Shown here piece after piece: positions 39,371 to 40,954 of a DNA stretch of 64,000 bases. Each line of letters opens with the position of its first letter. Position 1 is the stretch's first letter. The notes under the pieces are model-generated. The model was given only the letters and a program-made list of their open reading frames with translations. It ran no database searches and was not told where the DNA came from. Both the position numbers and the translations under genes were made by a program. Source of the DNA: Alphaproteobacteria bacterium (GTDB lineage Bacteria; Pseudomonadota; Alphaproteobacteria; RF32; CAG-239); contig JAFTVD010000007.1 of assembly GCA_017465945.1 (NCBI GenBank), forward strand, positions 4,926-68,925, in the 5' to 3' direction.

Positions 39371-40954
39371 TTACTTTCCACCACTATGCACAGTGTTATT
39401 CCTTATATAACCATTCATATCAAAACTATTATTGCCCCGATTTTCCACACTTTTTGTCTTCTCTTTAGATAACGTTGCATCATTCTCTTTATTTTTATTT
39501 ATTAAAGCCGATACTCTACCTAAAGCATTTTGCGCCTCTCTTGCTCTTCTATTTTCTCCTTCTAATTTTTCCATAGCAGGAAATGTTTGTAGAGAATAAT
39601 ACGCTCTTCTAGAAGGGTCACTAGCTAATTTAGGGTCATAATCTTTTATAACAACCTCTCCTTTAACTTCTTCATTTAACTCTCTAAAACCCATAACTCT
39701 ACCATAATCTCTTGGTATACTCAAAGCCACATCAAAAGCATCATTGCCTTTACATTCCACATCAGGCTTATGTCCTTTAACTTCAATATTTTCACCTTCT
39801 TTATCCCAATAAGTAAGCTTTCCCCATCCAACTCGCATTTCACCCCCCCAAGGTGTCGCAAATGTTCCTTGTACATATTGTTGCATACCCGCAGTATTTT
39901 CACCAACATATCTAACATTTGGATGATGATAAAAAGAAGAATAAGCACTTTCTGCTGAACTCCCAACCCTTGCACAAGTCAAAATATCTATTCTTCCTTT
40001 ATATCCCTTTTCTTCATTAAAGGCATAATAAACCCCTGTTTCATCAAACATAGCTTTATTTTCACCAGAAAAACATTCTCTTTTTGGTGCTTCTTGTCCT
40101 AATTTTTTAGCATTTTTCACACTTCCATGCTGTTGATATAAATGATACCCCAAAGGACTATCTTTAACTTCACATCTTTTATAAGTATTAACCAAATTTC
40201 CATAAGTTCTTTTTGCCACATGGTCTATTGGTTTATCCTCTCCACCTCGATTCCCTCTAACATCAAGAACAATTCTTCCCTTATCCCATTTTTCCCTATC
40301 TTTACCATAAACCTCATCAAATTTATCTATAAAATCTTTCCAATCTTTATACTCATTTCCCCTATGCATAATATCAAAAACAGACACCACTAAAATATCT
40401 TCACCATTCTTTTTTAAGGTTCCAATTTCCCAAGTTGGTACTTTTTCACCACTCTCGGTTACCAATGATGCTCCACCTAATTTTTCATATCCTTCAGGTC
40501 TTTCATCGTCTGTTCTATAACAAAAATTTTTCCCCACTGTTCTTTCTCTTTTTTCTCCACCTCCACGAGAAGCTTCACCTCTTCCTATTCCAACCTCAAA
40601 GTGCTTATCTTCAATAAATTTAGCACTTTTTCCCATTTCTTCCAAAAACTCTCCTTGATTTCTTTCTCCGTCAATTCCTCTATACATCCTCACAATATGA
40701 GATTTAAAAGCTTCTTGATTTTCTTTACTAAATTGCTCAAAACCAACATGCTCTGTTGCCATTCTCGCATAATATGCTAAATAAAATTTTTGCTCTTCAA
40801 CACTCAAATTTTTCTTATTATTTTCTTCAATTTCTCTTCTAGACAATCTCTCATAAGGTTTCATCATATCTTCCAGTGAAACACTAGCTACAATATCCCC
40901 AAACTCCTTATATACTTCAGAAAAGGTATCATTATTAAAAAATTTATCCTCCAT
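39371..40954 (-). CDS. S41 (C-terminal processing/CPAF-like) peptidase-family protein lacking PDZ and signal peptide
   Basis: Three S41 signature blocks in order: ILVVSVFD...RIVLDVRGNRGGE (versus LILDLRNNPGG), ARVGSSAESAY (versus GxSASAAE, catalytic Ser) and VGENTAGMQ (versus GExTFGKG). The N-terminal about 200 aa are charged and unrelated. Confidence 0.5.
   Translation of the reverse strand: MEDKFFNNDTFSEVYKEFGDIVASVSLEDMMKPYERLSRREIEENNKKNLSVEEQKFYLAYYARMATEHVGFEQFSKENQEAFKSHIVRMYRGIDGERNQGEFLEEMGKSAKFIEDKHFEVGIGRGEASRGGGEKRERTVGKNFCYRTDDERPEGYEKLGGASLVTESGEKVPTWEIGTLKKNGEDILVVSVFDIMHRGNEYKDWKDFIDKFDEVYGKDREKWDKGRIVLDVRGNRGGEDKPIDHVAKRTYGNLVNTYKRCEVKDSPLGYHLYQQHGSVKNAKKLGQEAPKRECFSGENKAMFDETGVYYAFNEEKGYKGRIDILTCARVGSSAESAYSSFYHHPNVRYVGENTAGMQQYVQGTFATPWGGEMRVGWGKLTYWDKEGENIEVKGHKPDVECKGNDAFDVALSIPRDYGRVMGFRELNEEVKGEVVIKDYDPKLASDPSRRAYYSLQTFPAMEKLEGENRRAREAQNALGRVSALINKNKENDATLSKEKTKSVENRGNNSFDMNGYIRNNTVHSGGK

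Follow-up and report, generated by a model that had tools for sequence, protein, structure and literature searches.

A PDZ-less, signal-less S41 peptidase of an uncharacterised subfamily, probably of the Ser/His type, in uncultured gut Alphaproteobacteria

We report the analysis of a predicted peptidase gene in a stretch of 64,000 bp from an alphaproteobacterial genome (GenBank assembly GCA_017465945.1, contig JAFTVD010000007.1, positions 4,926 to 68,925), which is referred to below as the window. The open reading frame (ORF) occupies positions 39371..40954 of the minus strand, starts with ATG and encodes 527 amino acids (aa) followed by a stop codon. S41 peptidases are the textbook example of Ser/Lys, PDZ-regulated proteases of the cell envelope. 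The interpretation that we favour, with moderate confidence, is that this gene encodes an S41 peptidase of the Ser/His type, devoid of a PDZ domain and of a signal peptide, which belongs to an uncharacterised subfamily, is chromosomally stable, evolves under purifying selection and most probably resides in the cytoplasm. The outcome is a well-supported reannotation and not a surprise.

The protein is a genuine member of the Peptidase_S41 family, and its motif blocks are not chance resemblances. The Pfam profile PF03572 (Peptidase_S41) matches aa 200–400 over positions 13–164 of its 165 (E=1.1e-12; 48.3 bits at a gathering cut-off of 24); the core match is contiguous, and the same domain is present in all homologues of the protein. 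The AlphaFold2 (AF2) model has a predicted local distance difference test score (pLDDT) of 90 and a predicted template-modelling score (pTM) of 0.85. Comparison of the model with PDB by Foldseek yielded 84 matches that reach E<=1e-3; the 50 best, as listed, are without exception of the S41 fold, i.e., S41 peptidases and IRBP; CtpB has the best E-value (1.7e-8), and 4l8k and 8vcb reach template-modelling (TM) scores of 0.60–0.67 normalised to the target. Profile-to-PDB comparison gave E-values of 1.6e-19 for CtpB, 5.4e-11 for NSR, 6.3e-11 for 8vcb, 8e-10 for 4l8k, and 6.4e-8 for CPAF. Along with the profile and the fold, the protein has the nucleophile Ser within a G-S-[SA]-x-E motif and the DxRGNxGG segment, whose residues Asp231, Arg233, Asn235, Gly237, and Gly238 are invariant in both the family and the distant alignments, and whose aligned counterparts are DVRGNPGG in CtpB and DLSNNTGG in NSR. 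A preliminary description of this gene, made from the sequence alone, had recognized three S41 blocks in the canonical order and proposed to verify them by a profile search and a structure prediction. Both analyses bear it out, the former with a match above the curated cut-off and the latter with the S41 folds just listed, and the blocks are placed at aa 228–239, 329–338, and 350–358. PF03572 was the sole Pfam family reported for the window protein, with neither a PDZ family nor Tricorn_C1 appearing even at E<=10; no NCBIfam model matches the protein, hence it has no named equivalog, and no match to a defence component was found by PADLOC.

To describe conservation, we considered a family set of 103 members, for which residue counts are given over the sequences aligned at each position; a deep set of 469 representative clusters obtained at E<=1e-3 by a hidden Markov model search of the whole database; and, for the wider comparison, 109 representatives of at least 300 aa from among the best 150 of these 469, mutually less than 50% identical. 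Ser332, placed in the AF2 model at the N-terminus of helix 332–341, aligns with Ser236 of NSR (TASSAEM) and with the catalytic Ser of CtpA and CtpB in the profile-to-PDB alignments. Both Ser332 and Glu335 are invariant (Ser332 in 102/102 aligned family members, the two residues in 109/109 wider representatives). The same holds for Asp116 and His118, which form a DxH motif retained in 102/102 aligned family members and 106/106 aligned distant representatives, as well as in alignments A2, A3, and A5. His118 lies four residues past the last helix of the N-terminal bundle and is the only His conserved superfamily-wide, in alignments down to 17–25% identity, whereas His69, His276, His344, and His395 are confined to the tight family. 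The acidic residue at position 391 is Glu in 100/101 aligned family members and in 104/106 aligned distant representatives, the other two having Asp.

The position of the S41A catalytic Lys shows no such conservation. In the alignment of GENTAGMQQ with GEKTFGKGS of CtpA and GDTSFGKGT of CtpB, this Lys corresponds to Met357; the position is occupied by Met (93), Lys (5), Gln (3), or Thr (1) within the family and by C, M, T, F, A, V, or Y in the wider relatives. With the Lys position variable and His118 invariant, the Ser/Lys dyad appears not to be conserved in this family, and the best-supported chemistry, to judge by conservation and position, would be that of Ser332 and His118, with Asp116, Glu391, or Glu335 as possible third members. 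Taken together, the invariant Asp116, His118, Ser332, and Glu335 point to a Ser/His mechanism of the kind operating in NSR, tricorn, and CPAF. The preliminary description had expected a Ser/Lys dyad and had made its claim depend on conservation of both residues in homologues; the Ser is retained throughout, but the equivalent of the Lys is not, and this half of the expectation has to be given up.

It is highly improbable, therefore, that the protein is a canonical Ser/Lys housekeeping protease of the Prc/CtpA type that merely lost its PDZ domain and signal peptide. CtpB does give the best Foldseek E-value and a strong profile match, and CtpA, CtpB, and Prc share with the protein the core fold, the Ser position, the DxRGNxGG segment, and N-terminal helices ahead of the core. 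This reading is nevertheless already contradicted by the Met at the unconserved Lys position, by the invariant DxH motif, by the absence of a signal peptide throughout the family, and by a slot of 57 aa at the place of the PDZ domain. In contrast to the window protein, CtpA, CtpB, and Prc use a Ser-Lys-Gln triad (Ser309-Lys334-Gln338 in CtpB; PMC3808539), carry a PDZ domain with a regulatory role, and leave the cytoplasm for the periplasm or forespore. Thus, all three S41A hallmarks, namely the catalytic Lys, the PDZ domain, and the export signal (the latter as assessed by hydropathy), are absent.

We find no more credible the possibility that the protein is a non-catalytic binding protein with an S41 fold, similar to IRBP, or a pseudoenzyme. 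IRBP modules occur among both the structural and the profile matches, yet the Ser, the GNxGG residues, His118, and the acidic residues are invariant in more than 200 diverse sequences, so that the protein, unlike IRBP, keeps invariant residues of the catalytic type, and purifying selection is strongest around the motifs that contain them. Indeed, the gene is under purifying selection, with the strongest effect in the DxH/VGxN segment: in comparison with the 85%-identical orthologue from locus L001, the ratio of nonsynonymous to synonymous substitution rates (dN/dS) is 0.158 overall, has its lowest value (0.062) at aa 114–199, equals 0.10 in the core, and rises to 0.32 at aa 441–527.

The N-terminal region of about 200 aa is acidic (15% Glu) and begins with a helical bundle, modelled mostly with pLDDT >94, which is retained both within the family and by distant relatives and corresponds in topology to the N-terminal helices of CtpB and the helical bundle of NSR. 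In CtpB, the N-terminal helices span chain residues 9–67, and the first core strand starts from chain residue 164 (residue ~206, given the offset of 42); in the window protein, the helices end by residue 113, and the first core strand starts at about residue 171. The intervening slot, which shows little regular structure, therefore has only 57 aa and is too short for a PDZ domain; this, along with the Pfam result, confirms the earlier statement that such a domain is lacking. The same description regarded the N-terminal 200 aa as highly charged and unrelated to S41 proteins. The region is acidic, but it is not unrelated, as it is conserved family-wide, folds as an S41-type helical bundle and carries Asp116, His118, and the VGxN motif. 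The presence of the two motifs in the segment with the lowest dN/dS suggests that the N-terminal region is an integral and probably partly catalytic part of the enzyme. In a separate observation, the pattern VGKN…P.GY…W.IG.L..G…L.V at aa ~135–190 (40385..40552) matched the repeats of a DUF11-like protein of 5,670 aa (P0215) about 25 times, each time without significance. As the summed E~1e-15 of the deep search arises from these insignificant repeat matches, P0215 was not used as a relative, and the resemblance is probably at the level of the motif only.

Among characterised S41 proteins, the closest in architecture and probable chemistry seems to be NSR from S. agalactiae (PDB 4Y68). Both proteins have a helical bundle followed by a His, a cap and a core, and no PDZ domain; in both, the nucleophile is situated in an x-A/G-S-S-A-E motif, and the S41A Lys position is taken by another residue (Tyr in NSR, Met here). 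The Foldseek match to NSR has a TM score of 0.46–0.51 normalised to the target. In NSR, the catalytic His98 directly follows the helical bundle and forms a Ser/His dyad with Ser236 (PMC4698656). The invariant His118 is correctly placed by sequence and secondary structure to play this role, and its equivalence to His98 would be positional, with no sequence-level alignment between the two. The profile-to-PDB alignments gave no residue-level equivalence of His118 with NSR, 4l8k, or CPAF, since the DxH region could not be aligned in them. NSR differs in being membrane-anchored, extracellular and encoded in a lantibiotic-resistance operon, and the window protein differs in having about 50 extra residues with VGxN after the His and ahead of the first core strand, a long C-terminal helix, and a basic tail.

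The similarity to NSR raises the possibility of intracellular detoxification of peptide antibiotics or xenobiotics, in which a cytoplasmic analogue of NSR would cleave an imported toxic peptide, and the GNAT and APH domains fused to some relatives would represent sister detoxifying activities. NSR is the protein with which the S41 protein has most in common among characterised, i.e., non-structural-genomics, S41 proteins (the SSAE motif, the helical bundle, the missing PDZ domain), and Acetyltransf_3/GNAT and APH are classic folds for small-molecule modification. Still, we consider this explanation improbable. The neighbours of the S41 genes across the loci include a recombinase, lipoproteins, ADP-heptose genes, an EEP enzyme, an SGNH hydrolase, and a GT92 glycosyltransferase, and no resistance operon with an ABC transporter or a two-component system, of the lantibiotic type or otherwise, was seen among them; the fusions also include putative peptidase-like and unknown modules and hence are not specifically drug-modifying; and they constitute a minority of the family, with none in the window protein.

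The preliminary description had offered a different model, CPAF of Chlamydia (CT858; PDB 3DOR and 3DJA), a secreted virulence protease with an S41 fold. The catalytic triad of CPAF is Ser/His/Glu, and its His precedes an inserted domain; candidate residues for a triad of this type, Ser332, His118, and Glu391 (or Glu335/Asp116), are conserved in our alignments. However, CPAF ranks behind IRBP, CtpB, NSR, 8vcb, and 4l8k in the profile search and is outside the top 50 listed fold matches. Moreover, this non-Lys enzyme contains a PDZ-like domain (residues 106–212) and is a zymogen with an internal inhibitory segment of about 40 aa that is removed by autoprocessing (PMC4734761). The comparison "PDZ-less like CPAF" therefore starts from a wrong premise, and the window protein, with its slot of 57 aa and contiguous PF03572 match, has neither the PDZ-like domain nor the inhibitory segment.

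The best whole-chain structural coverage is provided by PDZ-less S41 structures from Bacteroidales (4l8k and 8vcb). This group, which comprises 4L8K from Parabacteroides merdae, 8VCB and 3K50 from Bacteroides fragilis, and 4GHN from B. uniformis, shares with the window protein a helical N-domain, an S41 core and the lack of PDZ, but the proteins are shorter (~310–400 aa) and only 12–15% identical to it; we found no literature on their catalytic residues. Finally, tricorn, the archaeal cytosolic protease of the S41B type, is signal-less and has Ser/His-type catalysis in its S41 core, but unlike the window protein, with its 527 aa and PF03572 only, it is ~1070 aa long, contains two beta-propellers and a PDZ domain, and forms giant assemblies. 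Tricorn is also mentioned in PMC3808539 and PMC4698656.

The earlier observation that the protein lacks a signal peptide holds for the whole family: no hydrophobic N-terminal or transmembrane-like segment was detected in the window protein or the 103 family members by a Kyte-Doolittle window, which is not a dedicated predictor. Among the wider representatives, 80/109 have no N-terminal hydrophobic segment, and the N-termini of the other 29/109 are signal- or lipoprotein-like. Given these proportions and the 469 representative clusters, PDZ-less and signal-less S41 proteins can hardly be described as rare, as had been done before. In the closest clade, the gene order is an HExxH-containing unknown protein, an EEP-family enzyme, S41, an SGNH hydrolase, and a GT92 glycosyltransferase, and intergenic gaps of 60–71 bp and 11–16 bp suggest an EEP-S41-SGNH operon, whose EEP and SGNH members are signal-less hydrolases as well. 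The lack of a Sec, lipoprotein, or transmembrane signal and the association in operons with such hydrolases make the cytoplasm the most likely location of the protein.

The family is chromosomal, vertically inherited and found in stable synteny. All 21 loci with relatives (21/21; GC content 31–54%) come from metagenome-assembled genomes (MAGs) labelled as uncultured Alphaproteobacteria, "proteobacterium" or "Acetobacter sp.", most of them from the human or animal gut; UvrA encoded in L024, beside P0148, places that organism, too, among uncultured Alphaproteobacteria MAGs. In 7–8 related genomes, the S41 gene has the same neighbours, a serine recombinase, a Kef-type antiporter, and a DUF4422 gene, with the S41 proteins being only 57–60% identical, and no relatives were found in plasmid and phage collections by tblastn or among IMG/VR viral contigs by a scan, so that the gene is not evidently mobile. 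The S41 protein diverges faster than its neighbours (60% identity vs 68–90%). The flanking accessory genes vary by genome; in the window, these are hldE-gmhA-gmhB upstream and two lipoprotein genes downstream. Hence the notion of a recombinase-associated accessory patch should be reversed, the S41 gene being the conserved element of a variable patch with a recombinase that is syntenic in 7 genomes. Nor is the picture of an ankyrin-encoding, host-associated bacterium supported: no ankyrin repeat was found in the window, either by Pfam in 40 ORFs or by two regular expressions, and the relatives are MAGs of uncultured Alphaproteobacteria from gut-lumen metagenomes.

The C-terminal part of the protein, in particular its tail, is the basis for the most serious alternative. 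The mean net charge of the last 30 aa is +2.7 and is positive in 90% of 92 members, compared with -0.56 per 30 aa elsewhere in the protein. A recurring terminal motif, …ELRG·SS·TKAPYKPQ…TLRLYQSKKQNG, is represented in the lineage of the window by …NSFDMNGYIRNN…, and stays at the extreme C-terminus even after an APH kinase domain (P0017/21/33/48) or an HExxH-containing insert (P0002). The family is also modular. GNAT (Acetyltransf_3) is fused at either end of the S41 core in some relatives, and APH at the C-terminus; P0100 has an HxxEH-containing C-terminal domain with a weak M16_C match; and there are at least four mutually non-homologous N-terminal extensions, one with HExxH. Beyond GNAT and APH, the fused domains have weak or no Pfam matches. 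Extended forms are found among the most populous clusters, e.g., P0055 with 881 member sequences, and some genomes (L008) contain paralogues.

Several sequence features of these modules are recorded here in their own right. The modules fused to or adjoining the S41 core contain the HExxH motifs VVHEFLHG, YHEALH, and AIHEMVHF, as well as HxxEH (NHLIEH) and Cys…His (GYCLKG…NPHHAMFW) motifs, all read from the sequence and not validated; the motif-bearing modules are those of P0002, P0039/P0046, P0100, P0020, and L004 6286..7050. Tandem S41 cores, two or three per protein, occur in L019 (8013..10928) and L020 (7797..10712), both ~970 aa, and in P0128 and P0131 (790–950 aa); the second tandem copy is only ~26–28% identical to the window protein.

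Thus, the protein might be an exported effector or toxin, in which the S41 core is delivered with the basic tail acting as a non-Sec signal, for a VirB/D4-type type IV or a type I secretion system, and modules are added to it. Substrates of VirB/D4 systems are known for positively charged C-termini. We regard this explanation as unlikely, and what probability it has comes from the terminal tail and the domain modularity. Consistent with it, an acidic protein that lacks a Sec signal ends in a basic tail; the tail motif remains terminal behind inserted APH or HExxH-containing domains; the extensions and the GNAT, APH, HExxH, HxxEH, and second-S41 fusions are diverse; the S41 protein evolves faster than its neighbours and has paralogues in L008; and a distant relative in L024 adjoins an ankyrin-repeat gene, while a relative in L022 is near an autotransporter. 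On the other hand, neither the window nor the loci of relatives that were covered showed a secretion-system gene, no evidence of a target was found, the window has no ankyrin gene, synteny on the chromosome is stable and the core is under strong purifying selection. Further, there is no conserved immunity-like partner, and the operon partners look like ordinary cytoplasmic hydrolases; other S41 proteins are closer relatives than CPAF, which has a PDZ-like domain and a zymogen segment; and the source organisms are represented by MAGs from the gut lumen. A search for S41 effectors of Legionella in an effector atlas with the term "s41" returned nothing except matches to DOI strings. A more elaborate version of the same idea, which we consider unlikely, is a modular platform for exported effectors, combining a constant Ser/His S41 core and a terminal basic tail as a non-Sec signal with interchangeable GNAT, APH-kinase, HExxH, HxxEH, and second-S41 warheads; in this version, the tail would always be terminal because it is the translocation signal.

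Returning to the Ser/His peptidase of the cytoplasm, which we prefer, its action may be envisaged as follows. Ser332, at the N-terminus of its helix, would be the nucleophile, and His118 of D116-x-H118 would serve as the general base replacing the lysine of S41A enzymes, presumably oriented by Asp116 and/or Glu391/Glu335. The DxRGNxGG segment (aa 231–238) could bind the substrate backbone and form the oxyanion hole. The enzyme would then be a lineage-specific accessory hydrolase with which gut Alphaproteobacteria cleave peptides, or the ends of proteins, in the cytoplasm. Several observations weigh against this interpretation. Firstly, no PDB chain could be aligned in sequence with the DxH region, even by a profile of the N-terminal region only. 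Secondly, the cytoplasmic location is deduced from the absence of export signals, and the protein might leave the cell by a non-Sec route. Thirdly, a plain housekeeping role does not account for the basic terminal tail and the many fused enzyme modules. Finally, conservation of gene context is limited to the closest clade, and the more distant loci have no common gene context.

The analysis delimits a sizeable branch of the S41 family, 469 representative clusters for which there is neither an NCBIfam model nor a functional name in any source, that can be described by the signature DxH ... VGxN ... DxRGNxGG ... S[SA]xE ... GENTxG ... E, the absence of PDZ and, usually, of an export signal. Within this branch, a tight sub-family from uncultured gut Alphaproteobacteria shows unusual domain modularity. 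The exceptions within S41 that have been studied, NSR, CPAF, and tricorn, each have a distinctive biology. If the Ser/His assignment is true, it provides a clean sequence rule for splitting His-type from Lys-type S41 enzymes in annotation. Should the tail prove to be a secretion signal, it would offer a first handle on the interaction of these uncultured gut bacteria with other cells, and a modular effector platform, if real, would mean that these little-known bacteria of the gut deliver proteases by injection into target cells, be they bacterial or eukaryotic (protist or host). The positions of the features discussed are collected in Table 1.

Table 1. Features of the S41-like peptidase gene and its immediate surroundings, in coordinates of the window
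Feature	Position	Strand	Basis and remarks
Complete coding sequence (CDS) of the S41-like peptidase	39371..40954	-	ORF list; Pfam PF03572; 103 homologous clusters; dN/dS 0.158 vs L001 orthologue
N-terminal helical bundle, aa 8-113	40616..40933	-	AF2 helices 8-23, 27-30, 39-45, 52-67, 77-92, 100-113
D116-K117-H118, invariant DxH motif with proposed general-base His	40601..40609	-	Conservation; Asp116 possible partner
"PDZ slot", aa 114-170, 57 aa, from bundle to first core strand	40445..40615	-	AF2 secondary structure; CtpB alignment
V140-G141-K142-N143, superfamily-wide VGxN motif	40526..40537	-	G141 and N143 invariant or nearly so
S41 catalytic core, aa 200-400	39755..40357	-	PF03572 match; Foldseek S41 structures
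IVLDVRGNRGGE, aa 228-239, DxRGNxGG strand/loop	40238..40273	-	Substrate-binding and oxyanion region in CtpB and NSR
RVGSSAESAY, aa 329-338	39941..39970	-	Predicted nucleophile S332 at 39959-39961; E335
VGENTAGMQ, aa 350-358	39881..39907	-	M357 (39884-39886) at the S41A catalytic-Lys position
E391, conserved acid, candidate third catalytic or structural residue	39782..39784	-	Conservation
Long C-terminal helix, aa 454-504, tight family only	39443..39595	-	AF2; missing in distant relatives of ~390-420 aa
Disordered basic C-terminal tail, aa 505-527	39374..39442	-	pLDDT <50 for aa 506-527
Best sigma70-like promoter match, TTTACA-17-TAAAAT	41011..41039	-	Consensus match only; upstream of CDS
101-aa lipoprotein gene, possibly co-transcribed	38931..39236	-	Lipobox LLSGC

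The ATG of the S41 gene is directly preceded by a purine-rich ribosome-binding site, and the count of sigma70-like matches around the gene is not above the shuffled expectation. There is no terminator between the S41 stop codon and the gene of the 101-aa lipoprotein, and a terminator-like hairpin (38920-38903) immediately follows the latter. The hairpin separates it from a second lipoprotein gene (38138..38893, minus strand), also with the lipobox LLSGC, whose product is larger and has a weak match to an FSH1-type serine hydrolase. The pair of lipoprotein genes was found only in the genome of the window and in L001, most other loci having no equivalent. We considered the S41 protein and the small lipoprotein as an effector-immunity pair and rejected this, since the partner is restricted to the window and L001, and no consistent small secreted neighbour is seen elsewhere.

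Further downstream, a small serine recombinase (37475..38083, minus strand; PF00239 Resolvase and a C-terminal helix-turn-helix) is encoded beside the Kef-type antiporter. It occupies the same position in 7 related genomes, with 75–78% identity, and is missing there in L001. Being syntenic and having no flanking inverted repeats, it looks like a resident chromosomal gene and not a marker of recent insertion. Phase variation by a recombinase-inverted promoter was likewise discarded, as the only inverted repeats are imperfect, AT-rich and at chance level, and the recombinase is syntenic in 7 genomes. On the other side, a hldE-gmhA-gmhB-like trio for ADP-heptose synthesis (41224..43733, plus strand; PfkB and cytidylyltransferase, SIS, HAD) is transcribed divergently from the S41 gene. 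None of the related loci has such a trio at this position, and this side of the S41 gene is therefore a variable slot. In two otherwise unrelated loci, an S41-like gene is adjoined by a family of ~165–188 aa with no Pfam match and with the pattern MKLYHY…GRSRG…VIKGG[VI]IPP[KE]YI (L014 9518..10066, L014 12886..13383, and L019 7248..7814).

The window as a whole is ordinary chromosome, with AcrB, DnaE, SecA, PepA, SufD, PFK, AccA, ThyA, DnaJ, and YchF among its genes. It contains no second S41 copy, and no compositional anomaly was seen around the S41 gene. Its GC content is 29–36%, and the GC skew is negative in nearly all 2-kb bins, amounting to -7.1 cumulatively over 64 kb. A 603-aa ORF (44982..46793, minus strand), with no Pfam or PADLOC match and no homologue in any of the related loci, contains two copies of an internal motif, …KMNDRVE[IA]R..H…, and a Gly/Ala-rich hydrophobic C-terminal region, …GGKVAAKVGGKSAV…AGTGFAV…GAAGGEFLSGVAGCFPGLGTAASVAIDVGLA…. 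Other ORFs without any Pfam match, of 272–462 aa and all on the plus strand, are located at 61793..63181, 14948..16126, 28070..29134, and 18237..19055. Strong matches to two Pfam families named after eukaryotic proteins were observed on the plus strand, Mito_fiss_Elm1 at 9506..10483 (E=8.6e-73) and TMEM43 at 19567..20691 (E=2e-67).

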